A stretch of DNA of 64,000 bases. Source: Magnetococcales bacterium (GTDB taxonomy: Bacteria > Pseudomonadota > Magnetococcia > Magnetococcales > JADFYX01). Location: the NCBI GenBank assembly GCA_015231305.1, contig JADGBW010000001.1, positions 46,190 to 110,189 of the forward strand, read 5' to 3'. How positions within the stretch are numbered: the stretch's first letter is position 1; every line of letters starts with the position of its first letter. Below the pieces are notes generated by a model. That model worked only from the letters and a program-made list of their open reading frames with translations. It did not search any database and had not been told where the DNA came from. The translations under genes were made by a program, and so were the position numbers. Positions 20,774 through 64,000 of the stretch are shown here, in pieces.

Positions 20774-20846
20774 TATCCTTTTTTCTCATGTAAAAAAATT
20801 GTGACTCAAAAATAGTAAATACATTTATTTTAACCTTGGTTTAACC

Positions 20847-28437: not shown

Positions 28438-28460
28438 ACTTAGTCTGACAGCTCTCCCTA

Positions 28461-28490
28461 CACCTACACCGCAAACCGCCGAATCTAGGT
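28461..28490. repeat. Solo arm (copy D) of the structured repeat family
   Basis: CACCTACACCGCAAACCGCCGAATCTAGGT matches the reverse complement of the left arm of copy A (CACCGCCAACTGCCGAATCTAGG) at 21 of 23 positions by eye. Confidence 0.5.
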
Positions 28491-41274: not shown

Positions 41275-43392
41275 ATGGCAAACAAAAAAAACAGTCAGTC
41301 CAATAACGATAAAGGAAGTGAACAAGAACAACAATTAAATAAAAGCCATCCTACTTTTAAGCAAAGTATTCGTCATTATATTTATGAAAAGTCACAATCT
41401 CCATCCCGTTTTCCGTTCAGCTTTATAGCACTCCTTATTATCGGACTCTTAATCTCTGTTGCTGGTTACCAGGAAAGAAACAGGGATGCTTATGAATATA
41501 TAAAAGCTGATTTTAGCGAAGAGTTTTCTAAATTTGAAGAACTCCGTTTGACAGTTTTAAATCAACAAAATAAATTTGAAAACCAACAAAATGAATTCAA
41601 GAAGCAAAAAAAACAATATTTGACGAATTTGACAAAGCAACAATTTCAATTTGAAGAACAGAAACAACTCTATATAACAGAACTATCCGAGCAAAAGTAT
41701 GATTTGATCAAACAAAAAGAAGAAATTTTAATTTTACAAAAAGAATTAGAAACTGCTGCCAAGAAGAGGTTAGAAGAGGCAAAACAAGAGGCTGATAAGA
41801 CTCTAGAAAAGATATTGGGAGACCAGAAAGAAAGAAAAAAACAGTTAGAAGAACGAAGAAAGAAAAAAGAACAGGATTCTGAAAAATTGGATATGGTTGC
41901 CCGCCAGTTGGTGGAGCTGGAAACAAAAAGTGAAAAATATTTAATAAATTTTCAAACTTTAAATGGCCAATTAACAGAGCAATCTAGCCGAATTGAAGAG
42001 CTAGTTAGGGAGAGTCATGATATATACCAAAGATTAAATTCACTAGGAAAAAAACTTGGTGAAAAATCTATTCCAAGCACTGAAAAACCGAATCTGGATA
42101 CCCTAATTATAAAAATTGATAAGGCTATTCTAACTAATAGGCTCTCTCTTCCAGTTGGAAAAAGCGCAAAAGACCTTATAAACAATGGCCGACTCCACTA
42201 TCCTAACAACAATGTTTGGGATGAGAAGAAATTAGCAGTAATTGAACGTTATGTGACTTTAGCCAAAGCAGCAATAGGCAATAAAAACAAAGGTCGAGCT
42301 GCCTCAATGATTGACAAAATAAAAACTCTGGATAGTACTAACCCACATATAATAACACTTAATAACAAGCTTCAAGATTTAATAAAAATCACACAAACTA
42401 TTCCAGAAGAAAAACTTCTTATCATTGAGAAACAGATTAAAGCAGGCCGCCTCTCAAAACCAAAAGATGATAATGCCAGCGAAGCATTAAAGCAGCTAGA
42501 TCTACTCTATCCAAATCATGCAAAACTCAAAGCATTATGGATCATGATGGCTGAGGGCTATACAGAAAAAGCGCAAGAAATGATCAACGAGAAGAAAATT
42601 TCCAATGCTCAAATTTATCTTGATAAAGCACTAAAAATTGACCCTTACAACCAGTCTGCAAAACTGTTGCAGAAAAATTTAGTCTCTGACATAACCGTAA
42701 CAAAGACAAGCAAACTGATAGTAAGTAAAAGCCCATTGGAACAGCAGACCTTAAAGGAACTGTTAGCGTTATCTGATAGACAAATTAAAGCTTGGCACCT
42801 CTACTATCCGCAAAAATCTAACGCCATTAAGACTTTAAATATTGCCAAGAAAAACTATGGAGATTTGGAGGAAATCCAAAACCGAATTGATACTATTGCT
42901 TCACGCTATCTTGGAGCATCTCGACGAGCATTAAAAAATGAAGATTTTGAAAAAAGTTGGGAGTCTTTACAGCACTCGTTAAAAACCCGTCCTGAAGGTG
43001 TTGATGGATCCTTTGAACTAATACAAAGCCTGTTAAGTCAAGATACCACAGAAAACAGAAACAGCATTGATGGCTTGTTAAAACTAGCACAGGAATCTCT
43101 AAATAAAGGATTAATTACTAAACCATTTTTATTTAGTATGAAAGCTTATTTGGCACCAGTTAGAGTTCTTGAACCAGAAAATGAAAAACTTGCTGTTTAC
43201 GAGGGTGGTGCTATAACTCGCTACGTCAAATTAGTCCAATATTGGGTGAATGATAAGAAAAATTATGAGCGTGCTATTGGCTATATAAAAAGTGGCCTAG
43301 AGGCATACCCAAACAATTCAGACCTACTAGATCTACTTGGCAGAGTTGAGAAAGCCGCCAAAGAACAATCGGCACTTAATGGGGACAATTAA
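41275..43392 (+). CDS. Membrane-anchored coiled-coil protein with C-terminal TPR-like/helical repeats
   Basis: It has a single TM (FPFSFIALLIIGLLISVAGY). About 190 aa are K/E/Q-rich and heptad-like (QKELETAAKKRLEEAKQEADKTLEKILGDQKERKKQLEERRKKKEQ). Repeated modules follow, such as IKAGRLSKPKDDNASEALKQLDLLYPNHAKL and ALKIDPYNQSAKLL. Confidence 0.6.
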   Translation: MANKKNSQSNNDKGSEQEQQLNKSHPTFKQSIRHYIYEKSQSPSRFPFSFIALLIIGLLISVAGYQERNRDAYEYIKADFSEEFSKFEELRLTVLNQQNKFENQQNEFKKQKKQYLTNLTKQQFQFEEQKQLYITELSEQKYDLIKQKEEILILQKELETAAKKRLEEAKQEADKTLEKILGDQKERKKQLEERRKKKEQDSEKLDMVARQLVELETKSEKYLINFQTLNGQLTEQSSRIEELVRESHDIYQRLNSLGKKLGEKSIPSTEKPNLDTLIIKIDKAILTNRLSLPVGKSAKDLINNGRLHYPNNNVWDEKKLAVIERYVTLAKAAIGNKNKGRAASMIDKIKTLDSTNPHIITLNNKLQDLIKITQTIPEEKLLIIEKQIKAGRLSKPKDDNASEALKQLDLLYPNHAKLKALWIMMAEGYTEKAQEMINEKKISNAQIYLDKALKIDPYNQSAKLLQKNLVSDITVTKTSKLIVSKSPLEQQTLKELLALSDRQIKAWHLYYPQKSNAIKTLNIAKKNYGDLEEIQNRIDTIASRYLGASRRALKNEDFEKSWESLQHSLKTRPEGVDGSFELIQSLLSQDTTENRNSIDGLLKLAQESLNKGLITKPFLFSMKAYLAPVRVLEPENEKLAVYEGGAITRYVKLVQYWVNDKKNYERAIGYIKSGLEAYPNNSDLLDLLGRVEKAAKEQSALNGDN

Positions 43393-43478
43393 ACACACGA
43401 TAAAAAAATAATTATATACTTGATTTATAATTGTCCAAGTTTTAGTGGATAGGATGTGGATACTTATCGTTTGGCAAT

Positions 43479-43536
43479 GGTGTATCAGGCAGGTTTGCAG
43501 TCACTTAGTTAGTGAGATGCTTACACCTGATACACC
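43479..43536 (+). repeat. Structured repeat, copy B (hairpin with conserved apex)
   Basis: GGTGTATCAGG (43479-43489) pairs perfectly with CCTGATACACC (43526-43536). The apex GCAGTCACTTAGTTAGTGA (43497-43515) matches the copy A apex with compensatory changes. Confidence 0.6.
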
Positions 43537-43767: not shown

Positions 43768-46233
43768 TCAGTTTTTTTCACACCACTCTTGCCAAATTCT
43801 TTTAAATTCCGCAGTTAAAAAACTGGTGAATTTATTATGATCACATATTGGTGAATTTTTAAGTTTGCTGCTCAACCCATTGCGTATATTTTGGAGCTTT
43901 TTAGGTGATGATATTAAATCTACCACTAGTTTTACGTACTCTTCTAAATTATCTGTAACCAACTTATTTAAACCAACACTGTTGAGGACACTATACGCGT
44001 GGCGACCTGCAAATGTTTCTCCGCGTGTTGTTACTACAGGCACTCCCATAAAAAGAGCTTCTATGGTAGTTAGGCCACCAGAATATGGTAGAGTATCCAA
44101 AGCTAAGTCTACTCGGTTGTAACTGTTTAACAGCTGTAGGTGAGGTGTACGACCCTCAATAATTATTCTATCTATATCCACTCCTGCTCTCTCAAAATAA
44201 TTATTTATTCTTATAATATTTGCTTGGCTATCCATTCCGCTATAGATAAGAAGAAGCTTAGCATTTGGAGATAAGAGAAGAATTTGTGACCACACTTCTA
44301 ACATCTTTTCATTTATCTTTTCTGGGTTACCAAAATTACCCAACATAATATGGTCTTTTATTATATCTAAATGTGGGCTATCAAATGTGGGGGCATTATT
44401 TGGAGGGGTGTAACTTACCCATGAATCGGGCATTCTAATAATTTTTTCTGTATAATACTTTTCATCTCCATCAGGAGCATAACATTTATCAGCTATTACA
44501 TAGTCCATAGTTGGCAAACCTGTAGTACCAACATAACCTGCCCAACTTATCTGTATAGGAGAAGGTTTTTGCAAAAAAACAGGTAATCTATTTTTTGCAG
44601 TATGACCGGCTAAATCTAGTAGAATATCAATTTTATCATCATTAATTAGCTGGGCGAGTTCACTATTTCTCATAAATTTAGTAAATACAAAATTATCAGA
44701 ATAACTTTCAAACTGTTTTGTCATATTATCGGGGTTACGGTCTGAATAGCAGAAAATTTCCAGATCAGACTTAGAGTGATATTTAAAAAAACCAAGCATA
44801 AAAAAGCCTACAGGATGTTTACCAAGATCTCTAGAAACGACACCTATGCGGAGCTTGCGGTTTAAAGAAATTATATTATCATGATTAAATTTTTTTGCTT
44901 TTAAACTATTATTAAAAGTTTCTACCTCGTGTTTGTGTATCAAGTATAGGTTTTCAAGGCTTTGTCCTGGAATATATTGACTACAAAACAGTAAGTTGCT
45001 AGAAAATTCTGCACAATCGGGTTTAAAAAAAATAGCTTTTTGGTAATTGGCAACTGCATCATTTAGTTTATACTGTTTTTGCAGAACAGAACCCATTATA
45101 TTATAAGCTTGGGAGTTTTCAGGTTCTATTAATATAGCTTTTTGGCAAACTTCCAACGCTTCATCTAGTTTACCTTGTTCTTTTAGGGCGACCCCAAGGT
45201 TAGTATAAGCAGTTACATAATCAGGATTTAAAGATATTGCTTTTTGATAAACCGCTATTGCCTCATCAAATTTCCCTTGTTCTTCTAAAATTGAACCAAG
45301 ATTAATGTAGGTAGTTGCAAAATCAGGATCTTTGGATATAGCTTTCTGGCAAAACTTAACTGCTTCTTCTAGCTTACCTTGTTCTTTTAAGGCAACCCCA
45401 AGATTATTGTAAGCAGTAACATAGCTAGGCTTTAATGATATTGCTTTTTGGTAATTTTCAATTGCAGAAGACAATTTTCCCTGCTCTTGTTTAATACTTC
45501 CAAGCGTGCTTATAGCCTCTACAAAATTAGGATTAATTTGTATTGATTTTGTTAAACTGATAAACGCCTCATCAAGCTTACCTTGTTTCTTTAGAGTCAA
45601 ACCAAGATGGTAATGATTGATTGGATTGTTAGGATTTAATGAAACAGCTTTTTGGTTGCTTTTAAATGCTTCTTCTAACCTGTTTTGTTCAAATAGAGCA
45701 ATAGCAAGGTTGTTGTGTGCAGGTTCAAAACTAGGATTAATGGATATTGCTTTTTTATGACTTGCAATTGCTTCATCAAATTTTTCTTGCTGATATAGGG
45801 TTATTCCAAGGTTGTCGTGAACTTCTACTAAATTAGGATTTATAGCGATTGCTTTTTGAAAATTTTGTACAGCTTCGTCATAACATTTTTTATTCTTAAG
45901 AGCGATACCAAGATTATTATAAGCTTGGGCAAATTTAGGATTTATAGATATGGCCTTTTTGCATGCTATTATTGCTTCATTAACTTTGCCAATTCTAGTT
46001 AGAGCATCACCCATGCTCAGCAAAGCATCAACATTATCGCTGTGTATATCTAGAACTTTTTTATACCAATATATGGCATCTGCTAACAAACCAGATTGAT
46101 GATATTTTACAGCTTTGTTAAAAGCAATTTGCTTTCCATCACTTTTAATATTTTGAGAAGTATTTGCATTTTTGGTGTATTTAGAGATTTTTTTTTGCCG
46201 TCTCCTCTCTGCTCTATTCATCTTTATACCCAT
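43768..46233 (-). CDS. TPR-repeat protein with C-terminal GT41 (O-GlcNAc transferase/SPINDLY-like) glycosyltransferase domain
   Basis: There are more than ten canonical 34-aa TPRs (A..Y..AI.INP....A..NLG). The C-terminus has RIGVVSRDLGKHPVG...DILLDLAGHTAKNR...ISWAGYVGTTGLPTMDYVIAD...PYSGGLTTIEALFMGVPVVT. Confidence 0.8.
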   Translation of the reverse strand: MGIKMNRAERRRQKKISKYTKNANTSQNIKSDGKQIAFNKAVKYHQSGLLADAIYWYKKVLDIHSDNVDALLSMGDALTRIGKVNEAIIACKKAISINPKFAQAYNNLGIALKNKKCYDEAVQNFQKAIAINPNLVEVHDNLGITLYQQEKFDEAIASHKKAISINPSFEPAHNNLAIALFEQNRLEEAFKSNQKAVSLNPNNPINHYHLGLTLKKQGKLDEAFISLTKSIQINPNFVEAISTLGSIKQEQGKLSSAIENYQKAISLKPSYVTAYNNLGVALKEQGKLEEAVKFCQKAISKDPDFATTYINLGSILEEQGKFDEAIAVYQKAISLNPDYVTAYTNLGVALKEQGKLDEALEVCQKAILIEPENSQAYNIMGSVLQKQYKLNDAVANYQKAIFFKPDCAEFSSNLLFCSQYIPGQSLENLYLIHKHEVETFNNSLKAKKFNHDNIISLNRKLRIGVVSRDLGKHPVGFFMLGFFKYHSKSDLEIFCYSDRNPDNMTKQFESYSDNFVFTKFMRNSELAQLINDDKIDILLDLAGHTAKNRLPVFLQKPSPIQISWAGYVGTTGLPTMDYVIADKCYAPDGDEKYYTEKIIRMPDSWVSYTPPNNAPTFDSPHLDIIKDHIMLGNFGNPEKINEKMLEVWSQILLLSPNAKLLLIYSGMDSQANIIRINNYFERAGVDIDRIIIEGRTPHLQLLNSYNRVDLALDTLPYSGGLTTIEALFMGVPVVTTRGETFAGRHAYSVLNSVGLNKLVTDNLEEYVKLVVDLISSPKKLQNIRNGLSSKLKNSPICDHNKFTSFLTAEFKRIWQEWCEKN

Positions 46234-47494: not shown

Positions 47495-50400
47495 ATGAAT
47501 AAAATCCCCTTTCATATAGCAAAAAACCTTGGCTTTGGCTTCCTTTTTCTGGTGCTAATGGTTTTGCTTTCCTTCTCATACCAATATCAAAAAGAGTCCG
47601 CAAGCGAGCTAAATATAATAATTGAAAAAATTGTACCAAAAGAAAAGCAACTACAAAGAATAAATGAACACCTTAATACTGCTATCCAAGATTTTCAGAT
47701 CTACAAACGATTAGATAAAGTGACAACAGAAGACGTTCTAATGCCGTTGAACGCCTTACGCACAAAAATTTTTCAACTTGAAAAACAGTTAGCCACTCAC
47801 GATGAAAGTTTCATACCTAATAGCTTTATAAAACCTATCAATATTATCCGCATTTCCTTTCTTGCACATATCGAAGAGTTTAACAGTACGGGAGATCCTA
47901 CTAATGATATTAATGCATCTTTATTAGATAAAATAGCGGACAAATCTTCCACTCTTCGAGAAAATTTTAAGTTGCTGTTTGTGAGAAGCTCGACAACAGA
48001 TATTTCTGAAAAGACTCTTAAAATAATAAACTCCTGCTCCAAATTGTTGAGCATTTTGGATGAAGAGTTAAGACTATATTTAGCCCAAGAGCATTTACGC
48101 TTAGACGGAGCAAAAAAAGCCACTAAGATAGCAATTAAGCTACTAGAAAACTTGCATTTAGTTGAATTGTTAAGCAACGAGGAATTTAGTACAGATAAAG
48201 ACAATAAAATTTCTGTTTTGGTTACAAGATTAACCAGAAACCTAAAAAAATTTCTTATTGGTTTAACACATTATACTGAAGAAGAGAAAGAGAGTGGCGG
48301 TCAGACTGATACACTATACGAGATAGAAAATCGTATTAACCTGCTGTGGGAAGAAGCATCTTTGGATCTAGATACTATTAACTTGTATTTAGATAATTAT
48401 GTAGAATCTTCCCATAAACACCTTGCTGAACACCATGCAGATCGTACTGTGGATCTACTGTGGAATTCAGGCTTCGCCCTTTTTCTTATATTAACTATTT
48501 CTACCTTTCTTGGCAGAAGCCTAAACCAACGCATAAACGTTTTAACCATTGGAGCCAAAGCTTTTTCTGAAGGTCTATCTGATCACCGCATTACCCTCAA
48601 CACAAACGACGCTTTTTCAGAACTTGCAGATGTTTTTAACCAGATGGCTTCGGAAAGAAAACGCTATGAAGAGAGCCTTCAAACTGAAAAAAACTATGTG
48701 AATGATATAATTGAAAACTCCATGAACATGATTATCTCCGTTGATAAAAACAAACGGATTGTAGTGTTCAACCAAACTGCCCAAGAGACATTTGGATATA
48801 GTTTGCAAGAGGTACGTGGTAAGGCAAGCTCTTTGCTATACTATGATAATGAATTTCAAGATCAAGTAAGCAAAGATCTTAAGTCAAAAGGCCGTTTTAG
48901 TGGAGAGATAATTAACAAACGCAAAAATGGAGAACCGTTTTCATCTTATCTTAATGCTGTAGTACTGTTAGACAAAGACGGTAATTTTAATGGTGTAGTT
49001 GGTAATTCACGTGAGATTACTGAAGAAAAAGAGATAGAGACAGTACGTTTGCAAAAAGATGCAGCAGAAGCTGCAAGTGCTACTAAAAGTGAATTTTTAG
49101 CCAACATGAGCCATGAAATCCGCACCCCTATGAATGCTATAATAGGCTTGTCTGATATAGCATTAGGCATGGACATGCCACCTCGATTACATGATTATTT
49201 AAATAAAATAAATAACGCGTCACAATCACTATTACGCATAATAAATGATATACTAGATTTTTCTAAGATAGAGGCTGGAAAACTAGATTTAGAACCCCAT
49301 GATTTTATGCTTCGCGATATCTTCGAACAACTGTCAGCTCTTTTTCAAGACCGTGAAAATGATGGTGATGTAGAACTAATAATAAACATCTCTAAAGAGT
49401 GCCGTTATGCGTTAAATGGTGACTCTTTACGTCTTGAGCAGATCCTCATCAATTTATTAAACAATGCAATAAAGTTTACCCATGTAGGTGAGGTTGAAGT
49501 TTCTGTTTCGACCTTAGAGCAACTACCTGATAAGACTAAAAGCGGCCCTATTGTTCTGCAATTTTCAATTAGAGATACCGGAATTGGCATGACCCAAAAA
49601 CAGATTGAAAATCTTTTCCAATCTTTCCAACAAGCAGACTCTTCAACCACCAGAAAGTATGGAGGCACAGGTCTTGGTTTAACCATTAGTAAGCGGTTAA
49701 CACAGATAATGGGAGGTCGGATATGGGTAGAGAGTATACCAGAAGAAGGCAGCACATTCCATTTTACTGTAACTATGCTAAGACGACCTAATGCAGAAGA
49801 TAAACAAGACTTAATACCACCTATAGATATGCAACATTTAAAAGTAATGGTTGTAGATGATAGCCTAACTTCTTTAAAATCACTAAAATCGACACTAGAG
49901 CTATTTTCTTTTGATGTAACAACGGTTTTAAATGGTAAAGAAGCTATTATAGCTGCGAAAGAAGGAGTTACTTTAAAAGTACCTTATCAACTAATTATTG
50001 TGGATTGGTTGATGCCAGAAATGGATGGTTTAAAAACAGTTATTCAACTAATAAATGCTACCAATGCACAAGTTGATAAACCAAGAACAATTTTATTAAC
50101 TACAAACAAACAAGATGAAGAGATGATTAAACTAGGCAAAAATGCAGGGGTTGATGCTTTTTTGCCTAAACCAATAAATTGTTCCCGACTATATTATACT
50201 ATATTAGATATTTTTGGCAAAAAGGTAGTAGAAAAATACCACTCGCGAAGGGATGATATAGATAAAAAAATAATAATAGAAAATATAGCAGGTGCTCGTA
50301 TTCTATTAGTAGAAGACAATCCAATTAACCGCCAAGTAGCAGATGAAGTTTTAAAGGGCGTTGGCATTGTGGCAGATATGGCAGAAGATGGTGTACAAGC

Positions 50401-51355
50401 TGTAAAAATGGTGTATGAAAAGCAATATGATGCTGTATTAATGGATATCCAAATGCCCAATATGGACGGCCATACAGCAACTGTAAAAATAAGATCAGAT
50501 GAACGTTTTGCCAACCTACCAATTATCGCTATGACAGCACATGCTATGAAAGGAGATAGAGATAAAAGTATAGCTCATGGTATGAACGATCATATTGTAA
50601 AACCTATTGATAAAAAACAGCTGTTTAACACCATTACAAAATGGATAACCAATAAAAAACAGATTAAACCAGTTATTCCAATTATTCCAAATAATAAAAC
50701 AACAAATGACAATGGAGCTAAACTGCCAGATTCACTACCAGGAATAGATTTAAAATCTGTCCTTATACGCCTCAATAATAACCATAAGTTATGCAAATCA
50801 ATATTATTTGAATTTCATAAAGATTTTACAACAGCTGCAAAAGATATTCGCAACCTACTTGAAACAAAACAACCCAATGACCTTAAAGATGCTCTAAATA
50901 TTGCTCACTCTGTAAAAGGTATTGTTGGCAACTTCTCAGCAAAAAATTTATATAACTCTGTCCATGCATTAGAAATTGCTATCAAAGAAAAACGATATGA
51001 AGAACTACCAGACCTAGTAGATGGATTTGAGATATTCTTAAACGAAGTTATAAAATCTATTGAAGTTGTAAAAAAGAGAGAAGATGAAGCTACTTTTAAG
51101 GAACCGAAAGTAAATTGTGACTCAGAACCATTCAATATAGATATTATAACAACACTGCTTAAAGAGTTGAAAAAAGGGTTAGTTAACTCTAACTTCCAAT
51201 CACAGGAAATATTTGATACCTTAAAGCCGAAACTTGTAGGAACTGGAGCCGGAGATGATGTTGCTAAACTAGAAGAATCAATTGATCAACTTGATTTTCA
51301 AAAAGCGTTGATTCAATTATCTGCTATTGCAAGAAAACTAAATACCACTATATAG
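47495..51355 (+). CDS. Hybrid sensor histidine kinase (TM-sensor, HAMP, PAS, HisKA, HATPase_c, REC, REC, HPt)
   Basis: FLANMSHEIRTPMNAI is the H-box. NLLNNAIKFT, DTGIGM and GGTGLGLTISK follow. The two receivers show MVVDD...IIVDWLMPEMDG and LLVEDNPINR...VLMDIQMPNMDG. The HPt motif is AHSVKGIVGNF. Confidence 0.9.
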   Translation: MNKIPFHIAKNLGFGFLFLVLMVLLSFSYQYQKESASELNIIIEKIVPKEKQLQRINEHLNTAIQDFQIYKRLDKVTTEDVLMPLNALRTKIFQLEKQLATHDESFIPNSFIKPINIIRISFLAHIEEFNSTGDPTNDINASLLDKIADKSSTLRENFKLLFVRSSTTDISEKTLKIINSCSKLLSILDEELRLYLAQEHLRLDGAKKATKIAIKLLENLHLVELLSNEEFSTDKDNKISVLVTRLTRNLKKFLIGLTHYTEEEKESGGQTDTLYEIENRINLLWEEASLDLDTINLYLDNYVESSHKHLAEHHADRTVDLLWNSGFALFLILTISTFLGRSLNQRINVLTIGAKAFSEGLSDHRITLNTNDAFSELADVFNQMASERKRYEESLQTEKNYVNDIIENSMNMIISVDKNKRIVVFNQTAQETFGYSLQEVRGKASSLLYYDNEFQDQVSKDLKSKGRFSGEIINKRKNGEPFSSYLNAVVLLDKDGNFNGVVGNSREITEEKEIETVRLQKDAAEAASATKSEFLANMSHEIRTPMNAIIGLSDIALGMDMPPRLHDYLNKINNASQSLLRIINDILDFSKIEAGKLDLEPHDFMLRDIFEQLSALFQDRENDGDVELIINISKECRYALNGDSLRLEQILINLLNNAIKFTHVGEVEVSVSTLEQLPDKTKSGPIVLQFSIRDTGIGMTQKQIENLFQSFQQADSSTTRKYGGTGLGLTISKRLTQIMGGRIWVESIPEEGSTFHFTVTMLRRPNAEDKQDLIPPIDMQHLKVMVVDDSLTSLKSLKSTLELFSFDVTTVLNGKEAIIAAKEGVTLKVPYQLIIVDWLMPEMDGLKTVIQLINATNAQVDKPRTILLTTNKQDEEMIKLGKNAGVDAFLPKPINCSRLYYTILDIFGKKVVEKYHSRRDDIDKKIIIENIAGARILLVEDNPINRQVADEVLKGVGIVADMAEDGVQAVKMVYEKQYDAVLMDIQMPNMDGHTATVKIRSDERFANLPIIAMTAHAMKGDRDKSIAHGMNDHIVKPIDKKQLFNTITKWITNKKQIKPVIPIIPNNKTTNDNGAKLPDSLPGIDLKSVLIRLNNNHKLCKSILFEFHKDFTTAAKDIRNLLETKQPNDLKDALNIAHSVKGIVGNFSAKNLYNSVHALEIAIKEKRYEELPDLVDGFEIFLNEVIKSIEVVKKREDEATFKEPKVNCDSEPFNIDIITTLLKELKKGLVNSNFQSQEIFDTLKPKLVGTGAGDDVAKLEESIDQLDFQKALIQLSAIARKLNTTI

Positions 51356-51480: not shown

Positions 51481-52896
51481 ATGGCTGGTATTGAAAAACC
51501 TCTTATTCTTATTGTTGATGATATACCAGGCAACATCAAGACTCTTGCTGCCATCCTTTCTGATAGTTATGAAATTATATTTTCCACAAACGGAGAAGAC
51601 GCACTTACAAAAGCCCAAGATAGACCCATAGATTTGATTCTTCTTGATATATCTATGCCAGGTATGGACGGCTATGAAGTTTGTAGACGATTAAAAGGTA
51701 ATGAACAAACCAGCGATATACCAGTTATATTTGTTACAGCAAAACAAGAATCTTTCAATGAGACCATGGGATTTGAGGTAGGTGCGGTTGATTATATAAC
51801 CAAGCCTATTAGCCCGCCAGTAGTAAAAATTAGAATACATACCCAACTACAAAATAGAGAGTTAAACCGTAGCTTAGCTCAATCCAACCAATTTATTCGT
51901 AAAACATTTGGCCGCTATATGTCTGATGAGGTGGTAGAGAGTATTTTGGACACACCAGAAGGGTTACGCTTGGGTGGTGAGAAAAAATTAGTTACAGTCA
52001 TGATGAGCGACCTTCGTGGCTTCACAGCCATGGGTGAGAGGTTAACACCTGAAGAGGTCATCTCCATGCTTAATATTTATTTGGAAATCATGACCGAGGT
52101 CATACTAAAATATCAGGGAACAATAATTGAATTTTTGGGTGATGGTATTCTTGCTCTTTTTGGTGCGCCAATTACAAGAGATGATGATGCTCAAAGAGCC
52201 ATGGCATGCGTTTTAGAGATGCAGTTAGTAATGTCTCAAGTCAACAAAAAATTCCGTGAAAAAGGTTTTGAAGAGGTTACAATGGGCTGTGGAGTAGACA
52301 CAGGCTATGTTGTGGCCGGAAATATAGGGTCTGACTTAAGAAGTAAATATGGGGTAGTAGGAAACACTATTAACTTAGCTGCACGCATAGAGTCATTTAC
52401 TGTTGGTGGTCAAATACTTATTACAGAAAATACCATGAAAGCTTGCAGTGCTACATTGCGGATAGATGATCAATGGCAAGTTAGTGCTAAAGGCGTTGAA
52501 CATACCTTAACCGTTTATCATGTGGGAGGAATTGAAGAGCCATATAATATTCAACTTAAAAAACAAGACAATATTAAACCACATCATGTAAAAGAAGGGC
52601 TGACAGTAAGGCTGACAATTCTAGAAGGTAAACGTGTAAACCAAAGAGCACATGATGGCAAAATAACAGCACTACTTCCTTCACTAATAGTTATAAAAAC
52701 AGAGTTATCTGCAAGAAGGTTAACCAACCTAAAAGTTGAACTTTTAGACAAACAAGGGGCAACTATAACAAACCAACTTTATGGTAAAGTAGTTGGGCAA
52801 GAAGAAAAAACAGGTTATATACAAGTGCAATTGACTTCTATTCCACCAGAGGCCAGCAAGGCTTTACAAAATTTGTTAAATACTGAAACAATTTAA
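51481..52896 (+). CDS. Response regulator with class III adenylate/guanylate cyclase output domain
   Basis: The REC domain shows ILIVDD...LILLDISMPGMDG. The cyclase domain shows VTVMMSDLRGFT, EFLGDGILALFGAP, GNIGS and GNTINLAARIES. A ~110-aa C-terminal domain is unassigned. The track start is TTG 51466; ATG 51481 has GAGGTG upstream. Confidence 0.85.
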   Translation: MAGIEKPLILIVDDIPGNIKTLAAILSDSYEIIFSTNGEDALTKAQDRPIDLILLDISMPGMDGYEVCRRLKGNEQTSDIPVIFVTAKQESFNETMGFEVGAVDYITKPISPPVVKIRIHTQLQNRELNRSLAQSNQFIRKTFGRYMSDEVVESILDTPEGLRLGGEKKLVTVMMSDLRGFTAMGERLTPEEVISMLNIYLEIMTEVILKYQGTIIEFLGDGILALFGAPITRDDDAQRAMACVLEMQLVMSQVNKKFREKGFEEVTMGCGVDTGYVVAGNIGSDLRSKYGVVGNTINLAARIESFTVGGQILITENTMKACSATLRIDDQWQVSAKGVEHTLTVYHVGGIEEPYNIQLKKQDNIKPHHVKEGLTVRLTILEGKRVNQRAHDGKITALLPSLIVIKTELSARRLTNLKVELLDKQGATITNQLYGKVVGQEEKTGYIQVQLTSIPPEASKALQNLLNTETI

Positions 52897-53054
52897 TAAA
52901 CTACCTTTTTTTAAAAAACTTACAGCTATTATTGTCACACAAGTATAGGTATTGACTTAAAAATAGCACCAACTCTCTTTACAAGTTAAGAAAACTACCA
53001 GCTTTTTAGAAAACGTAATAACTAACTCAAAATAAAAAAACTGACCATAATTTA

Positions 53055-53273
53055 ATAATCCTAGATTCGGCAGTTGGCGGTGCGTGCATGGCGTAAGATA
53101 TTGGTTTATCTGGTGTATTTGGGGAAATCGCAGTCACCTTGTTGGTGATAAGATTTTCCCCAAATATGCCAGGTGAATCAATGGCTTGCGTCAGGTGCGT
53201 GGCGACAACTGCTGGATCTAGGATAATGGTAGTTCCCGCAACTCACCACCAACTGCTGCAACTAGGATAATCC
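53055..53273 (+). repeat. Structured repeat, copy A (long imperfect hairpin of ~173 nt plus a duplicated terminal segment)
   Basis: ATAATCCTAGATTCGGCAGTTG (53055-) pairs with CAACTGCTGGATCTAGGATAAT (53206-53227). The inner arms pair with many G-T (G-U) positions. The apex is GCAGTCACCTTGTTGGTGATAAG (53130-53152). The right end recurs at 53250-53273. Confidence 0.65.
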
Positions 53274-53331
53274 TTGTGACATTACCAATTTCATGGATAT
53301 ATAGTACAATCTTCTTCTATAAGAAATATCC

Positions 53332-55782
53332 ATGGTTAAGGTTAAAAAAATGAATAACAACCAAGCAACTATAACAATTCCAATCTCAGGTATGTCATGT
53401 GCCTCATGCTCTGGTCGAGTAGAGAAAAAACTAAAAAGCTTGGATGGAGTAATAAAAGTATCTGTTAATCTTACAACAGCAAAAGCTACAGCTACCGGAG
53501 CCATGACTGTGGATTCTATGTTAGCTGCTGTTAAAGAGGCAGGGTATGAAGTTCCTACCATTTCTGCAACATACACCATACAGGGGCTATCTTGTGCTTC
53601 ATGTGTTGGAAGAACTGAAAAGGCTTTTCATGATATTCCCGGAGTTGCCAATGCTCAGGTAAACTTAGCCACTCGTAAAGCTACTGTTAAGTTTGTGCCA
53701 GATACAGTTAGCTTTTCTATTTTGCAAGAAAAAATTGACGAAATTGGTTTTAAATTAGGGGAAATAAGAGGAGATGAAACTCCAAAAGATTTAGCAGAAG
53801 AGGAACGCCTTCAAGAGCATAGAGAGATAAAAAAACGATTAACAATTGGTGGCATATTGGTTGTTGCTACTTTCATAATAATGCATTGGCAAAATTTAGG
53901 CTTGGATTCAATTATTGAAATTCCACGTCAGCTTAACTATTGGTTGCAATGCTTGCTTATTTCCCCAGTTCAATTTTGGGTGGGTAGATATTTCCATCAA
54001 AGTGCTTGGGCAATGGCTAAGCACGGTTCTGCCAACATGCATACTTTAGTAACAGTAGGTACTTTTTCTGCTTATATATACTCCCTATTAGTACTCTTGG
54101 TTCCTAGTCTGTTTATAGCTAAAGGGGTTGCAGCAGAGGTATATTTTGATACATCTGGGTCAATAATTGTTCTTATTCTACTCGGTCGTTTTTTAGAAAA
54201 CCGCGCCAAAGGCCGAACTTCTCAAGCAATCCGCAAGCTTATTGGTCTCTCTCCTAAAACCGCGCGGGTAATTAAAAGCAAAAAAGAGGTAGATATTTCA
54301 TTAGCTGAGGTTTTGGTTGGCGATATTGTAGTTGTACGGCCTGGAGAAAAAATACCTGTTGATGGAGTGGTTAAAGAAGGCAGCTCTTTGGTTGATGAGT
54401 CTATGTTAACTGGTGAGCCACTAGGGGTTAGTAAAAAGCCTGGAGATGAGGTAGTTGGAGGAACTATAAATAATAGTGGCTCTTTTAAATTTACCACCAC
54501 AAAAATTGGCAACGATACTGTTTTGGCACAAATTGTTACCATGGTGCAGCAAGCCCAAGGAGCAAAACCACCCATAGCTCGCTTAGCAGATAAAATAGCC
54601 TCAGTTTTTGTACCAGTTGTAATAGGCATTGCCACAACTACATTTTTTATATGGTGGCTTTTTGGTCCCGAACCACCTCTTACCTATGCGCTTTTAAACT
54701 TTGTATCAGTGTTGATTATAGCTTGTCCCTGTGCCTTGGGGCTAGCCACACCTACTTCTATAATGGTTGGTACTGGTAAGGGTGCTGAGAACGGTATTTT
54801 AATTCGCGGTGGAGAGTCATTAGAGATAGCCCACAAGCTAGATACAGTAGTTTTTGATAAAACAGGAACCCTTACAAAAGGCAAACCTGTTGTAACCGAT
54901 TGGAGTGGCGATGATGATAACCTTGCTATTTTAATAAGTGCTGAAAAAAATTCTGAGCACCCCATAGCAGAGGCCATTGTGGCTCATGGAGTTGAGAAGA
55001 AACTTTCACTTGGCAAGGTAGAGTCATTTATTGCAAATTCTGGCAAAGGTATAACAGCTACTGTTGATGGTCGTCGTGTACTGGCCGGAACAAGGCTTTT
55101 AATGGATGAAGCCGGAATAGATATAACCATGCACCTAGAAACTATGACAAAATTTGAAAACCAGGCAAAGACAGCAATTATTGCTGCTGTTGATGGCATA
55201 GCTGTAGGTGTTTTAGCTGTAGCAGATACCGTTAAAAAAGAGAGTAAAGAAGGGATTGATAAACTAAAAAACATGGGCATAGAGGTTATTATGCTCACAG
55301 GTGACAATCAACGTACTGCTCATGCTATTGCAGAGCAACTTGGTATTGATAAAATTGTGGCAGAAGTATTACCAACTAATAAATCAGAAGAGATAGAACT
55401 GCTGCAAGCTAGTGGCAAAGTTGTAGCCATGGTTGGTGATGGAATAAATGATGCCCCTGCCCTTGCTCGTGCTGATGTTGGTATTGCTATTGGTACAGGA
55501 ACTGATGTCGCTATGGAGTCAGCAGATATAACCCTTATGCGTGGTGACCCCCGTAGTGTTGCTATAGCAATTCAGCTCTCTCGTGCTACCATAACAAATA
55601 TAAAACAGAATCTTTTTTGGGCCTTTGCATATAATATTATCTTAATCCCATTAGCTGCTGGAGTGTGGTTCCCATTGTTTGGAGTTTTACTCTCACCAAT
55701 TTTTGCTGCTTCTGCCATGGGTCTATCAAGTGTTACTGTAGTTAGTAATGCCTTGCGACTTAAAAATTTCAAACCAAATTAA
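53332..55782 (+). CDS. copA: Copper-translocating P1B-type ATPase
   Basis: There are two HMA domains (GMSCASC, GLSCASC). CPC sits in a TM helix ([13 protein letters not shown]). DKTGTLT and GDGINDAP are present. The start could be 53332 or 53350. Confidence 0.9.
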
Positions 55783-55875
55783 TTGAAATTTGACTTTTTT
55801 ATCATCGCTATATATTGCCAACTTCTGAATTTAGAAAAAAACGAAATTTCAAAAAAAGTGGATGAAAAATATAAA

Positions 55876-56589
55876 ATGCTTATTTATTTTGTAGGAACAT
55901 CAAGATCAGGATCAACTTGGCTGTATGAACGTTTTGTTGAGCACCCACAAATTTTACAGCCTGAATTTCATGCAGATGGCAACAACAAAAGCAGCAACTT
56001 TTGGAAAAAAGATATCAACTTTATTAGAAGGTTGGTTAAAGATTTTAAACTGTTTTTTAAAGGTGAGTTTAACTCTGACATTACAGATGGTAGTGGATAT
56101 ATTGCAAAAGAGAATATACTAGAGTTAAAAAAAGCTTTTCCTGATGCAAAGCTAATCTACTGTGTAAGAAACCCTATTAAAATATTTTGGTCCCACGTCC
56201 ACTTTGTTAGCAGTGGGGATGTTAACCTTGAAGTACTAAAAAGCTTTAAAGAGTCACCTGATAACTATTATGAAAATACAAGGCACGATTTAAATATTAC
56301 CCGTTGGGAAGAAATTTTTGAGCAAAAAATATATAAATTTTTCTTTACTGATATCCGTGACAACCCCCAACAAGTTTTAGACGGTCTAGCAAATTATATA
56401 GGTGTAAAACCTTGGCAAGTGGAAGATACAAAATTAAAAGAGAAAATAAATGTATCAAACGCTTCTAAAAATAATAGTATTCCTGAAGATTGTTTAGCGT
56501 GGATGAATGAAAACCAAAAGAGCAACATCGATTGGTGTGAAAATTATTTTAAAAAAGATTTTACACACTGGAGACAAGGGCAGGAATAA
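55876..56589 (+). CDS. Sulfotransferase-family protein
   Basis: VGTSRSGSTWLYERF is 5'-PSB-loop-like and CVRNPIKIFWSHV is 3'-PB-like. The track start TTG 55783 is unlikely; ATG 55876 begins MLIYFVGTSRSG. Confidence 0.6.
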   Translation: MLIYFVGTSRSGSTWLYERFVEHPQILQPEFHADGNNKSSNFWKKDINFIRRLVKDFKLFFKGEFNSDITDGSGYIAKENILELKKAFPDAKLIYCVRNPIKIFWSHVHFVSSGDVNLEVLKSFKESPDNYYENTRHDLNITRWEEIFEQKIYKFFFTDIRDNPQQVLDGLANYIGVKPWQVEDTKLKEKINVSNASKNNSIPEDCLAWMNENQKSNIDWCENYFKKDFTHWRQGQE

Positions 56590-56645
56590 CCCAAGCAAAA
56601 GTAGTTAACATTTAATTTTTTTTAGTTTGTAGCAAAGATAATTTA

Positions 56646-59600
56646 ATGAGTGTAAACCAGAGATTTTTAGCACTAATTATTATTATGGCATCACTAGCCA
56701 CTGTAACTGGCTTTGGTGGTATTTGGCTGCTTTATAAAACTGCAACCAACCAAGAACAAATTAGACTAACAGAATTTGTACAGAGTCGCGCCCGTCTTAT
56801 GGAGGCTATTGCTAGGTTTAATGCAGCAAATAGTTCTGACCTACCTGGAGGTAGTGAATTAGCGACAGTTTCACAAATAAAAGAAGCCCACAAACAGTTT
56901 TCTGGTTTTGGAGAGTCTGGTGAGTTTACCCTTGCCAAAAAAGTAGACGACAATATTGTTTTTATACTTAACCATCGCCACAACAATAAAGAGTCTACCA
57001 ACTTAGTAGCATTTGATTCCAAATTAGCGGAACCAATGCGTAGAGCACTAATGGGTAAATCAGGAATTATTATTGGTCCTGATTATCGGGGAGTAGATGT
57101 TATAGCCGCCCACGAACCCATAGCCGTACTAAATTTTGGTATTGTGGCAAAAATTGATTTAACTGAAATACGCGCACCTTTTATAAAAGCTACACTTTAT
57201 TGGATATTTTTTGCATTAAGTCTTGTTGCTCTTGCTGTATTTATTTTTTATAAAATTGGCTCCCCTATTTTAAACACTATACAACAAAATGAAAAAAAAC
57301 TTGGCTTACAAGTCAACTGTATAAACAAGCTACAACAGCAGTTTATTCAAGCTACTCATCCTGATAAACTTTTTAATAATTTGTTGGAAGAAGTATTAAA
57401 AATTACTGACAGTGCATACGGATTTGTAGATGAGGTGCTTTATGATAAAAATGGTGATGCATATCTACAAGCATTGGCAATTAGCAATATTGCCTGGAAT
57501 GAAAAATTGCAAAGGTTCTCTTCAGACAACACTCCACCCGGCTTAATTTTGCAACAAATGCACGGGATTTATGCCGAACCTTTTAAAACAGGCATACCAT
57601 ATATATCCAACAACCCAAAAATAAACATACAAAATAGTAACCCTACTGATGACCCAACACCGTTAAAAAGCTTTATTGGGCTACCATTAAAAATTGATGA
57701 TAAAGTTGTTGCAGTTATAGGCTTAGCAAACAGATCTTCTGGGTATGACCAAGAGTTAATCGATTTTTTAAAACCAGTAACAACAGCATGTGCCAGAGTT
57801 ATTGAAAATTATAAAAATCAAATAAATATGTTACATGCTAAAGAAGCCTTAAAGGCAAGTGAAGACCGCTTCAGATCTCTTGTGGAGTCTACTTCAGACT
57901 GGATTTGGGAGATGGATACCTTTGCAAACTTCCAATATGTAAGCCCAAGAGTAAAAGATATTTTAGGATATGAGCCTGAAGAACTTATCGGCAAAATGAC
58001 TGGTTTTGACCTTATGCCACCTGATGAGGCAAAAAAAGTACATGCTAAATATAGTGAATTTGTTGCAGAAGAAAAATCTTTTAGTGGGATGACCTACATT
58101 ATTACCAATAAAAGCGGTCAAAACAGAGTGATGGAATCTAATGCCCGCCCTTTCTTTGACAATAACGGGAAATTACTAGGATATAGGGGTATAGACCGGG
58201 ACATTACAAAACGTATAGAACAAGAGACGATATTTAAAAAGGTAGAACTACGCCAACGCCTGATACTAAACTCAGCTGGAGACGGTATATATGGCATTGA
58301 TATTAATGGCATGGCTACATTTGTAAACCCTGCTGCTGCTAATATGATTGGCTGGCAACAAGAAGAACTTATTGGTTTAGATCTTCATAGCGTTTTACAT
58401 AAAAAACATGCCGATGGTTCGCAATATTTACATAAAGATTGCCCAATTTATACATCTTTAAAAGATGGTAAAACCCATACAATTAAACATGAGGTTTTCT
58501 GGAGAAAGGATGGCAATAGTTTTCCCGTTGAATATATAAGCACACCTATTATTGAACAAGATAATATTGTAGGAGCAGTGGTTATATTCAGAGACATCAC
58601 CCAACGTAAAAAGATTGAGAAACGTCTGCGTGAGTTAACTGAGGCAGTTGAGCAGAGTCCGGCAAGTGTTGTAATTACTGATACTGATGGAATTATCCAG
58701 TATGTTAATCCACAATTTTGCAATTTAACTGGTTACTCCTCCAAAGAGTCAATTGGCGTTAGCCCAGGAATTTTAAAATCTGGAAGTATGTCAGAAAGTG
58801 CATATAAACAATTGTGGGATACAATATTAGCTGGAAAAATATGGCATGGTGAATTTCATAACAGAAAGAAAAATGGCGATCTATATTGGGAGTCGGCAAG
58901 CATATCTCCTATTCGTGATTCTGAAAATAGAATAACAAATTTTCTAGCTGTTAAAGAAGACATAACAGAACGAAAAAAAATTGAAGATGAGCTAAAACGT
59001 TCTAAGGAGATAGCAGAAAAGGCTAATGAGTCTAAAAGCATGTTTCTTGCTGCTATGAGCCATGATATCCGTACTCCTATGAATGCAATATTAGGTATGG
59101 CAGAGATTCTGTCTGAAAGTAAATTAGATGATGAACAAAGTCACTATTTAAAGGTAATAAATAGTGCTGGTGAAGGTCTTTTAGCTCTTATAAATGATAT
59201 TCTAGATTTATCGAAAATAGAAGCTGGAAAACTAGAACTTGAGACTATTCCATTTTCTCCACATGAGTTGGCTGGTAATACAGTAAAAATACTAAAAACC
59301 AAAGCGTTAAGCCAAGGTGTCGGGCTTTCTAGCAAAATTGACAACTCTATACCTGACCAGATAGTGGGCGACCCTCAAAGAATTAAACAAATTTTATTAA
59401 ACCTACTATCAAACGCGCTTAAATTTACCGAAAGAGGAAAAATTGTTTTAACTATAACGCAAATTCAAAATAAATATTTACGTTTATCTGTTTCTGATAC
59501 AGGAGTAGGTATAGCAAAAGAGAGACAAGAGACTATATTTCAGCCGTTTAAACAGGCAGAAAGCTCTACCACTCGTCGTTTTGGTGGAACCGGACTTGGT

Positions 59601-60143
59601 CTGTCTATCTGTCAAAAGTTAGTATCATTGATGGAAGGAAAAATTTGGGTAGATAGTACACTAGATGAAGGAAGCACTTTTTACTTTGAAATACCACTTC
59701 AGTTAGCTACAAAAACCGATACACAGCAGCAGACTGGGTTTAATAATAACGTTATAAAGGGTTCTAAAAATATTGGTTTATCCATTCTATTGGCAGATGA
59801 TGCCCCAGAAAATTGTTTTGTTGTAGAAGCATATTTAAAAAGTACAGCCCACAATTTAACCATAGTTGGTGATGGCTTAAAAGCACTAGAGAAATTTAAA
59901 AAAGGTGCTTATGATATTGTGCTTATGGACATTAATATGCCTGTTTTAAATGGTTACGAGGCAACTAAAAAAATTAGAGAATGGGAGAGAGAAAAATCAC
60001 GTTCGCCAACGCCTATATTGGCACTAACAGCTAACGCAATGAAAGAGGATATCAATAAAACTCGCGAAGCTGGCTGTAACCTACATATATCTAAACCCAT
60101 ACGCAAGCAACGACTGCTTGAGGTTATTGGTTTATTTTCTTAA
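56646..60143 (+). CDS. Hybrid sensor histidine kinase (periplasmic sensor between two TMs, GAF, three PAS, HisKA, HATPase_c, REC)
   Basis: The TMs lie at aa ~7-30 and ~185-205. The GAF region shows AYGFVDEV...IGLANR. PAS blocks are present (WIWEMD.., GIYGIDINGMATFVNPAA, VVITDTDGIIQYVNPQF). H-box is FLAAMSHDIRTPMNAI, followed by GGTGLGLSICQ. The REC domain shows ILLADD...VLMDINMPVLNG. Confidence 0.9.
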   Translation: MSVNQRFLALIIIMASLATVTGFGGIWLLYKTATNQEQIRLTEFVQSRARLMEAIARFNAANSSDLPGGSELATVSQIKEAHKQFSGFGESGEFTLAKKVDDNIVFILNHRHNNKESTNLVAFDSKLAEPMRRALMGKSGIIIGPDYRGVDVIAAHEPIAVLNFGIVAKIDLTEIRAPFIKATLYWIFFALSLVALAVFIFYKIGSPILNTIQQNEKKLGLQVNCINKLQQQFIQATHPDKLFNNLLEEVLKITDSAYGFVDEVLYDKNGDAYLQALAISNIAWNEKLQRFSSDNTPPGLILQQMHGIYAEPFKTGIPYISNNPKINIQNSNPTDDPTPLKSFIGLPLKIDDKVVAVIGLANRSSGYDQELIDFLKPVTTACARVIENYKNQINMLHAKEALKASEDRFRSLVESTSDWIWEMDTFANFQYVSPRVKDILGYEPEELIGKMTGFDLMPPDEAKKVHAKYSEFVAEEKSFSGMTYIITNKSGQNRVMESNARPFFDNNGKLLGYRGIDRDITKRIEQETIFKKVELRQRLILNSAGDGIYGIDINGMATFVNPAAANMIGWQQEELIGLDLHSVLHKKHADGSQYLHKDCPIYTSLKDGKTHTIKHEVFWRKDGNSFPVEYISTPIIEQDNIVGAVVIFRDITQRKKIEKRLRELTEAVEQSPASVVITDTDGIIQYVNPQFCNLTGYSSKESIGVSPGILKSGSMSESAYKQLWDTILAGKIWHGEFHNRKKNGDLYWESASISPIRDSENRITNFLAVKEDITERKKIEDELKRSKEIAEKANESKSMFLAAMSHDIRTPMNAILGMAEILSESKLDDEQSHYLKVINSAGEGLLALINDILDLSKIEAGKLELETIPFSPHELAGNTVKILKTKALSQGVGLSSKIDNSIPDQIVGDPQRIKQILLNLLSNALKFTERGKIVLTITQIQNKYLRLSVSDTGVGIAKERQETIFQPFKQAESSTTRRFGGTGLGLSICQKLVSLMEGKIWVDSTLDEGSTFYFEIPLQLATKTDTQQQTGFNNNVIKGSKNIGLSILLADDAPENCFVVEAYLKSTAHNLTIVGDGLKALEKFKKGAYDIVLMDINMPVLNGYEATKKIREWEREKSRSPTPILALTANAMKEDINKTREAGCNLHISKPIRKQRLLEVIGLFS

Positions 60144-63855: not shown

Positions 63856-63965
63856 ATAATCCTATATTCGGCAGCTTTTTGCACTTAACGGTACAAGCTT
63901 TTGCTTCACCTGGAAAGTCAGAAAAAAATCTCATCACCAACAAGGTGTTTTCAATTTTTTTCTGA
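63856..63965. repeat. Structured repeat, copy C (possibly truncated by the window end)
   Basis: ATAATCCTATATTCGGCAG differs by one mismatch from the copy A left end. An inner hairpin joins TCAGAAAAAAAT (63918-63929) to ATTTTTTTCTGA (63954-63965). Its apex ATCACCAACAAGGTG is the reverse complement of the copy A apex core. Confidence 0.55.
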
Positions 63966-64000
63966 TTCACAAGATAAAGCAATATGTAGCGCTAATAATG

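Follow-up and report, generated by a model that had tools for sequence, protein, structure and literature searches.

Intergenic hairpin repeats in a Magnetococcales contig very probably belong to a MITE family with IS1380-like ends

A 64,000-nucleotide stretch of the Magnetococcales bacterium assembly GCA_015231305.1 (contig JADGBW010000001.1, positions 46,190 to 110,189; this whole stretch is referred to below as the window) contains a long hairpin at positions 53055-53273, which raises the question of whether such structures are remnants of a mobile element or parts of a transcribed structured RNA. Both possibilities were left open in the first-pass annotation of this DNA, which described a family of related hairpins, copies A to D, at four intergenic sites. 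As detailed below, these repeats are very probably copies and decayed fragments of a MITE (a miniature transposable element with inverted repeats) that has IS1380-like ends, is presumably moved in trans, and most likely originated by fold-back. They are assigned to a MITE because they combine terminal inverted repeats and 5-bp target-site duplications with the presence of many copies in many genomes and with the existence of autonomous elements that have the same ends, so that the mobile-repeat option of the first-pass annotation is the one retained. With this assignment, the annotation of the window is settled, the four hairpin sites being transposon copies or relics and not regulatory RNAs.

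The reported family is readily recovered by motif searches: in the window, the end motif has 4 matches at up to 3 mismatches against 0 expected and the apex motif has 3 matches against 0.03 expected. Coordinates refined with a profile built from 37 related elements give 5 copies or fragments in the window, namely, copies A, B, C, and D and an extra end fragment (Table 1), and all of them are intergenic, as had been stated. Copy A, located at the hairpin in question, matches the full model (53059-53223, plus strand) and has no coding capacity, since its sole ATG is followed by a stop two codons on; the GC content of the window, which comes from a low-GC Magnetococcales metagenome-assembled genome (MAG), is 36.7%, and the Mfd encoded there is 100% identical to a protein that carries the NCBI name “MAG: Magnetococcales bacterium.” In the proposed scheme, a complete copy would be a unit of ~163 bp that begins with CCTAGATTCGGCAGTTG, ends in its inverse, carries no gene, and lies between two 5-bp AT-rich copies of its target. 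The arms of copy A found in a repeat search, 53055-53127 and 53155-53227, are 73 nt each and 74% Watson-Crick complementary. Copy A is a near-perfect hairpin, and the G-T-type differences between its arms pointed out earlier are confirmed: mismatches between the arms on the plus strand comprise 14 of the G-T type and 1 of the C-A type (binomial P of ~5e-4), and the plus-strand hairpin includes 15 G-U pairs among 74. Computed RNA folding energies are −119.5 kcal/mol (z score, −12.7) for the plus strand and −81.5 kcal/mol (z score, −6.0) for the minus strand; with DNA parameters, the 163-bp copy gives −51.5 kcal/mol versus −29.9 kcal/mol. The plus strand of copy A is the wobble-rich, better-folding one.

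Further copies of the element are numerous. A scan of 185,579 species-representative genomes with the 19-nt end ATWATCCTAKATTCGGCRG yielded at least 116 stretches, of which ~35 are estimated to arise by chance, and a metagenome scan with TCCTAGATTCGGCAGTTG yielded at least 120 more. Many of the genome stretches, from many taxa, contain two inverted end matches 100 to 200 bp apart, and the end CCTAGATTCGGCAGTTG is found in inverted pairs at well over 100 public loci. In an alignment of 22 elements, both ends carry this sequence with little or no variation. Lengths of the inverted pairs cluster at ~165 bp and at 177 to 180 bp (with one extra base counted per end), within a family range of 40 to 235 bp; the derivatives of 40 to 127 bp look like internal deletions. 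Element interiors vary by lineage, and each one read forms a full-length hairpin with the apex TCACC-N5-GGTGA or a near variant. According to the record titles, from which host taxa were taken (MAG labels depend on binning), profile-significant copies are found in Magnetococcales, Coxiellaceae, several Gammaproteobacteria, Oceanospirillaceae, the cultured isolate Paraglaciecola sp. MB-3u-78, Chlamydiales, Verrucomicrobia, Puniceicoccaceae, Bdellovibrionota, and unclassified Pseudomonadota. Longer or shorter relatives with matching flanks come from Geobacteraceae, Methylacidiphilum, and Betaproteobacteria, and single, unpartnered matches in Methanosarcina, Bacillota, and Planctomycetales may be due to chance. 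The matches listed include at least 13 loci in the relative nGRbin4 and several in each of certain other MAGs. The plasmid collection gave one match only, an unannotated copy in Legionella adelaidensis, and viral contigs scanned with the 16-nt end gave 23 single matches around which the repeat was not extended, i.e., the chance level.

The ends are delimited by the flanking duplications. Identical 5-bp flanks are seen in 72 of the 109 inverted pairs drawn from both scans and the window, and 19 more pairs have one mismatch. The identical flanks represent at least 15 different sequences, the commonest being ATTAT (27) and ATAAT (25), whose numbers are inflated, since the scan patterns fixed one flank; the others include ATAAA (4), ATGAA (3), TTAAA (2), TTTAT (2), and TTCAT. 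Several of these, among them ATAAA, ATGAA, TTAAA, and TTCAT, are not palindromic. The type of duplication has no fixed relation to the orientation of the element (TTA, 17; TAA, 10). A 3-bp TAA/TTA duplication with the ends TCCTAG...CTAGGA, which would fit 49 of 56 pairs, was superseded by the autonomous elements and the nonpalindromic 5-bp flanks. The autonomous elements and several copies with other flanks define the element as CCTAG...CTAGG, with a 5-bp duplication.

Autonomous elements with the family ends and 5-bp duplications are 1.64 to 1.7 kb long and contain one open reading frame (ORF) for a DDE transposase. In a 1,894-bp metagenome contig, L172, the family ends are 1,638 bp apart and surround a 531-aa ORF that matches the Pfam domains PF13701 (DDE_Tnp_1_4; E value of 2.7e-24, 85.7 bits, threshold of 34.7) and PF01609. 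The same ends are found in four other elements: L216, with a transposase that is 40% identical to that of L172; L264, with the ends CCTAAATCCGGCAGTTG; L265, an element of 1,645 bp with a perfect TTCAT duplication; and an element with a perfect TTAAA duplication on the Polaromonas sp. P1-6 plasmid CP087967.1, where it is annotated merely as “transposase.” The L172-type transposase has more than 4,783 homologues at E values of 1e-20 or lower, mostly on metagenome contigs of 1.6 to 2 kb and mostly unnamed; the family connects this very large clade of IS1380-like transposases, hardly any of them named, with a MITE that is abundant in several phyla and has nearly invariant ends. By the ISfinder rule, ends of the IS1380 family begin with CC and the target duplication is 4 to 5 bp. 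The CCTAG...CTAGG ends of the MITE and of the insertion sequences (ISs), along with the 5-bp duplication, fit this rule. ISEcp1, a member of the same family, has the left inverted repeat (IRL) CCTAGATTCTACGT and AT-rich direct repeats of 5 bp (PMC6061673). Over its first nine bases, CCTAGATTC, the MITE end is identical to that IRL. The common ends and duplication are observed; mobilization in trans by the DDE transposase of a 1.64- to 1.7-kb IS1380-like IS is the step we infer from them. The transposase ORF of L172 extends into the terminal inverted repeat (positions 132 to 136), where the TAG within CCTAG serves as its stop codon.

Several other partners were considered and dropped. An IS5/Harbinger-type transposase had been suggested by the 3-bp reading of the duplication, and an IS30-type one by the IRL of Escherichia coli IS30 (TGTAGATTCAATT...), which has TAGATTC in common with the MITE end; neither was kept in the light of the autonomous element and the 5-bp flanks. 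Between the two ends of a 2.6-kb “pair” in L120 lie lexA and a dinB-like gene, and L079 contains an IS30-like fragment that has no relation to the MITE ends. In the latter contig, from a gammaproteobacterial MAG rich in MITE copies, a TnpB-like C terminus and an IS200/IS605-type right end abut the broken IS30-like transposase fragment at the contig end (6930-7304). No recurrent transposase adjoins the ends in the 116 genome loci listed.

The autonomous elements also suggest where the hairpin came from. All five ISs contain TCACC-N5-GGTGA, 57 to 100 nt inside the end at which the transposase gene starts, where it encodes His-Pro-x-Gly-Glu. The 5′ end of the IS aligns to positions 1 to 92 of the MITE model (E values of 3e-8 for L172 and 2e-6 for L216) and, when reversed, to positions 75 to 165, whereas the 3′ end aligns only to the terminal repeat (model positions 145 to 165). 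Both arms of the MITE therefore correspond to one IS end mirrored at a small palindrome, and the MITE was most likely born by fold-back or template switching at the apex palindrome, as judged from these alignments. Its body would consist of two inverted copies of the transposase-proximal IS end (terminal repeat, leader, and first codons), joined at the TCACC-N5-GGTGA palindrome from the start of the transposase gene, and an event of this kind would explain why the hairpin runs the full length of the element, why the apex is conserved, and why the stems are lineage specific. Such an apparent birth of a MITE at a transposase-start palindrome offers a simple, testable route to hairpin MITEs. In the Polaromonas element (L267, 420-450), the annotated ATG of the transposase lies in the loop of a TCACC-AAATG-GGTGA hairpin, which may control the initiation of transposase translation.

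Some observations weigh against this account. The L172 ORF matches the NCBIfam IS1380 family transposase model (NF033539) with an E value of 5.6e-44 and a score of 150 bits, under the 180-bit cutoff, and its product is only ~25% identical to annotated IS1380-family transposases of plasmids. In the window, no IS1380-like transposase was seen among the part of the ORFs that was scanned. In nJSWbin3, the regions upstream of copA and vanZ are without a full element, and their flanks are too diverged or rearranged to align, which leaves no clean comparison of a filled with an empty site. As for the fold-back origin, the middle sections of the IS-versus-MITE profile alignments are weak, no MITE with arms matching any sampled IS and no MITE-IS pair with matching arms in a single genome were found, and fold-back alone leaves the one-strand wobble bias and the conserved asymmetric features unexplained.

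The pairing of the arms was analyzed in 22 elements of the 162- to 169-nt class that represent all lineages. Their consensus hairpin has 57 pairs, 36 of them with changes on both sides. Paired cells make up 89.4%, compared to 71.6% ± 0.9% after shuffling, with none of 500 shuffles reaching the observed value, and 38 to 47% in slid controls; cells changed on both sides number 243, compared to 93 ± 8. The covariation, the check proposed in the first-pass annotation, is real, and it is compatible with selection, with repeated birth as a palindrome, or with arm-to-arm correction. It is expected in any case if each arm is a copy of one IS end.

The uneven distribution of wobble pairs between the strands is less easily explained. 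The counts for the two strands are 16 versus 2 in one copy of L129 and 2 versus 13 in the other, 12 versus 1 in L119, 12 versus 2 in L055, 0 versus 12 in L064, 8 versus 1 in L069, and 6 versus 0 in L138. The elements were also oriented by aligning them to copy A in a purine/pyrimidine code that ignores transitions. In this orientation, 28 of the 37 informative elements, and 20 of the 22 whose orientation is clear, had the common “top” strand as their wobble-rich strand; G-U pairs totaled 241 on the top strand and 88 on the other. Both orientations occur within one contig (e.g., L129), the bias being tied to the element rather than to a given strand of the genome. Consensus sequences of the subfamilies contain 52 G-U among 497 pairs and almost no C-A, while private changes at Watson-Crick pairs produced 50 G-U and 30 A-C combinations; the lineage that propagates is therefore more strongly biased than the changes of postinsertion decay. 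Certain wobbles are common to several phyla, such as U-G at columns 34/139 (13 of 22 elements) and G-U at columns 35/138 (12 of 22). We read the strand bias as a property of the element's own propagation and not as a mark of a host RNA function. Its possible causes are selection that favors the folding of one strand, deamination specific to one strand while the element is single-stranded, and a motif required in direct orientation on both arms. This bias is the single feature that could lead somewhere new: it could inform the poorly known mechanism of transposition in the IS1380 family, which includes ISEcp1, a main mobilizer of the blaCTX-M resistance genes. The G-U bias is real and family-wide, but the argument for selection on structure from a preserved apex on variable stems is weakened because the palindrome is inherited from the transposase start and each arm is a copy of the same IS end.

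The same data can be viewed in other ways. A functional structured RNA, i.e., a cis-regulatory hairpin or a small RNA selected on the wobble-rich strand, with the transposon-like ends being secondary, would agree with the strongly strand-asymmetric folding energy, the G-U asymmetry across many lineages, the strength of the covariation (89.4 versus 71.6%; 243 versus 93), and the match between the wobble-rich strand and the transition-blind orientation in 28 of 37 elements. However, the covariation would follow anyway from arms copied off one IS end, and target duplications, deletion derivatives, and solo ends are the behavior of a transposon. A search of Rfam 15 gave 0 matches in the window at gathering thresholds, the only hits being to generic microRNA-precursor hairpin models, far below threshold, and no terminator-like site (a GC-rich stem followed by a U tract) was found in 52850-53400. 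Among 25 copies with clear neighbors, the top strand is sense to both neighboring genes in 4 cases and antisense to both in 8, with 10 further copies placed between convergent genes and 3 between divergent ones, so there is no bias toward the sense orientation. Taken together, this makes the transcribed-RNA option of the first-pass annotation very unlikely. Its other expectation, a partner of the RAYT or TnpA (IS200/IS605) type, did not hold, the partner being a DDE transposase of the IS1380 kind. The corresponding reading, a repetitive extragenic palindrome (REP), a bacterial interspersed mosaic element (BIME), or an IS200/IS605-derived palindrome moved in single-stranded form by a Y1 (HUH) transposase such as RAYT, would be consistent with the persistence of the hairpin and its one-strand bias when DNA parameters are used and with a GTAG that adjoins the apex in a gammaproteobacterial subfamily. 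It can be regarded as highly improbable, though, given that Y1 transposases duplicate nothing and the flanks vary between copies and match within a copy, that the terminal inverted repeats are long and exact, that five elements contain a DDE transposase flanked by identical ends, and that no recurrent Y1-type ORF is found beside the copies in the 116 loci listed. The variation in flank sequence by itself argues against a hairpin-guided single-strand transposase.

A MITE identity also leaves room for a more specific scenario, in which mobilization or copying of the element requires that one specific strand become single-stranded and fold, in DNA or RNA form, and the wobble bias has been selected in lineages competent for transposition. 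We regard this as a minority possibility, worth keeping in mind. It is favored by the contrast between the subfamily consensus (52 G-U and almost no C-A) and the less biased private changes (50 versus 30), by the tracking of the element and not of the genome strand in L129, and by the wobble positions common across phyla (34/139 and 35/138). On the other hand, the conserved GTGC/GTGC wobble could mean a direct-orientation motif on both arms, the sample is small and its subfamilies are not independent, mutational bias on a master copy may suffice, and DDE transposases of this superfamily are generally regarded as acting on double-stranded ends and are not known to pass through a single-strand step. 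In its fullest form, this scenario would describe a cross-phylum fold-back MITE whose propagation depends on the hairpin of one strand, with G-T(U) wobbles tolerated on that strand only and the structure kept through compensatory change, a proposal that we put forward as a speculative one. If true, dependence on a folded strand would imply a strand-specific single-stranded step for an IS1380/piggyBac-related DDE transposase.

The preferred reading, a fold-back MITE with IS1380-like ends, places the family among several known systems. It resembles the IS1380 family, and ISEcp1 in particular, in the first nine bases of the ends, in the 5-bp AT-rich target duplication, and in having autonomous relatives of 1.64 to 1.7 kb with a single DDE ORF that matches PF13701 and the NCBIfam IS1380 model. 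In contrast, the window copies have no coding content, the transposases associated with the family form a distant clade (~25% identity, below the NCBI cutoff), and the inverted repeat of the MITE family is longer and more conserved (~17 to 20 nt). The Correia/NEMIS repeats of Neisseria, ERIC of enterobacteria, RUP, Chunjie, and QMITE are likewise noncoding, intergenic units of 100 to 250 bp with terminal inverted repeats and a duplication; the RNA hairpins predicted for these MITEs are very stable, and some of the MITEs have sites resembling those of integration host factor (IHF). However, Correia and ERIC elements duplicate TA. The family described here has a 5-bp duplication and ends that differ from the Correia and ERIC reference sequences. 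Chunjie differs in its 9-bp repeats, as do QMITE1 (300 to 400 bp, with 2- to 3-nt repeats) and QMITE2 (7- to 9-bp repeats). Further, each of the classical hairpin MITEs is restricted to a single genus or family, in contrast to the present one, which extends across several phyla and has an identified autonomous relative. As in fold-back elements, the whole unit is one long inverted repeat with both arms derived from one transposon end. The classical elements of this type occur in eukaryotes, have a much greater length, and consist of subrepeats; here, the symmetry is centered on a defined palindrome of 15 nt that comes from the transposase gene start. Integron attC sites also combine conserved ends with a paired middle that varies and with a marked tendency of one strand to fold, but a tyrosine recombinase recombines them in folded single-stranded form, with no target duplication, and the 5-bp duplications and DDE partner of the present family indicate a likeness of form only. 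A literature search, with ISfinder and subscription journals outside its scope, found the end sequence in no paper and retrieved no IS1380-derived MITE and no family with this breadth of phyla or fold-back architecture. Thus, the kind of element is well known, and this particular MITE family seems undescribed.

The IHF-like site of copy A (Table 1), an exact match to the consensus WATCAANNNNTTR, is present in the right arm only, a wobble change having broken its mirror image in the left arm. The exact consensus is found in 6 of 41 elements, all of the Magnetococcales type, and the site was dropped as a family-wide feature; it is a lineage-specific lead at most.

The features identified in the window are listed in Table 1.

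Table 1. Copies, fragments, and sequence features of the MITE family in the window
Feature	Position	Strand	Description and basis
MITE copy A	53060-53222	+	Complete, 163 bp, CCTAG...CTAGG; nhmmer E values of 1e-32 to 5e-47
Left target-site duplication of copy A	53055-53059	.	ATAAT; direct reading
Right target-site duplication of copy A	53223-53227	.	ATAAT; direct reading
Left terminal inverted repeat of copy A	53060-53077	+	CCTAGATTCGGCAGTTGG; first 9 nt as in the ISEcp1 IRL; motif search and alignment
Right terminal inverted repeat of copy A	53205-53222	-	Reads CCTAGATCCAGCAGTTGT on the minus strand; motif search
Apex palindrome of copy A	53134-53148	+	TCACC-TTGTT-GGTGA, center of symmetry; recurs at the transposase start of autonomous ISs; motif search and alignment
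IHF-like site in copy A	53176-53188	+	AATCAATGGCTTG; exact match to the IHF consensus
MITE copy C	63861 to beyond 64000	-	Inverted relative to copy A, cut by the window end; repeat and profile searches
Flank of copy C	63856-63860	.	ATAAT; direct reading
Copy B	43477-43532	+	Central relic without terminal repeats; model positions 52-108, E value of 0.016
Copy D	28458-28489	-	Solo terminal repeat and ~14 nt of arm; model positions 2-33, E value of 0.007
Extra solo end fragment	53240-53266	-	From a second, inverted copy; model positions 1-28, E value of 2.2 (weak alone)

The relatives of copy A differ in completeness. A repeat search pairs copy A with 63894-63957 (inverted, 75%) and with 28467-28489 (91%), which correspond to copies C and D, respectively. 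Copy C, initially described as a 110-nt element, is actually a whole inverted element truncated by the end of the window (profile match at 63860-63994, minus strand, model positions 31 to 165, E value of 1e-23). Its reverse complement is collinear with copy A throughout, with the stem TCAGAAAAAAAT/ATTTTTTTCTGA at the place of TTTGGGGAAATC/GATTTTCCCCAAA in copy A, and the variability of the stems that had been pointed out (GGGG/CCCC in A versus AAAA/TTTT in C) is as described. The same is true of the apex of copy B, TCACT-TAGTT-AGTGA compared to TCACC/GGTGA in copy A; this relic retains a perfect 11-bp stem, GGTGTATCAGG/CCTGATACACC. Copy D, previously reported as a solo arm, is a solo end. The profile match to the extra end fragment spans 53240-53267, and ATAAT is found again at 53267-53271. 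The region 53223-53271 thus consists of the ATAAT of copy A, a 10-nt spacer, the 27-nt inverted end fragment, and a second ATAAT, a layout that suggests either that two insertions followed one another at one spot, most of the older copy having been lost, or that transposition gave an aberrant product.

With respect to the neighboring genes, copy A is placed after a response regulator gene and before copA, for which a promoter-like site is predicted downstream of the copy (53276-53305). Copy B sits between convergent genes. Copy C abuts the start of vanZ, with its 3′ end ~23 nt upstream of the start codon (63837); it may affect the expression of this gene, by supplying or displacing the vanZ promoter.

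The single match from the plasmid collection, in L. adelaidensis NCTC12735 (L143, 20001-20178; NZ_LR134433.1, 211345-211522), has CCTAGAAAAAGCAGTTGAG at both ends instead of CCTAGATTCGGCAGTTG; the two ends of this copy covary, presumably tracking a variant transposase. The respective record is labeled as a plasmid, yet it carries rho, fumC, and trxA. Many copies of the MITE lie within ~100 nt of a contig end, e.g., in L029, L034, L039, L040, L054, L094, L118, L144, L157, and L166, and the family and its IS probably break short-read MAG assemblies.

Several other features of the window were recorded in the course of this analysis. The 705-aa ORF upstream of copy B (41275-43392), listed as a coiled-coil gene in the first-pass annotation, has no NCBIfam or Pfam match. 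Repeats with a 102-nt period at 45017-45959, inside the gene for an 821-aa tetratricopeptide repeat (TPR) protein (43768-46233, minus strand), are ordinary 34-residue TPR units. Two adjacent paralogous genes at 19547-22079 share ~73% DNA identity; a weak glycosyltransferase-like domain is seen in each of their products, which have 408 and 410 aa. The hybrid sensor kinase genes at 47495-51355 and 56646-60143 are 71 to 74% identical at the DNA level around the phospho-acceptor region (49063-49287 and 59012-59236). Compared to the orthologous region of nJSWbin3, the window contains two additional genes (55783-60143) between copA and the next common gene.

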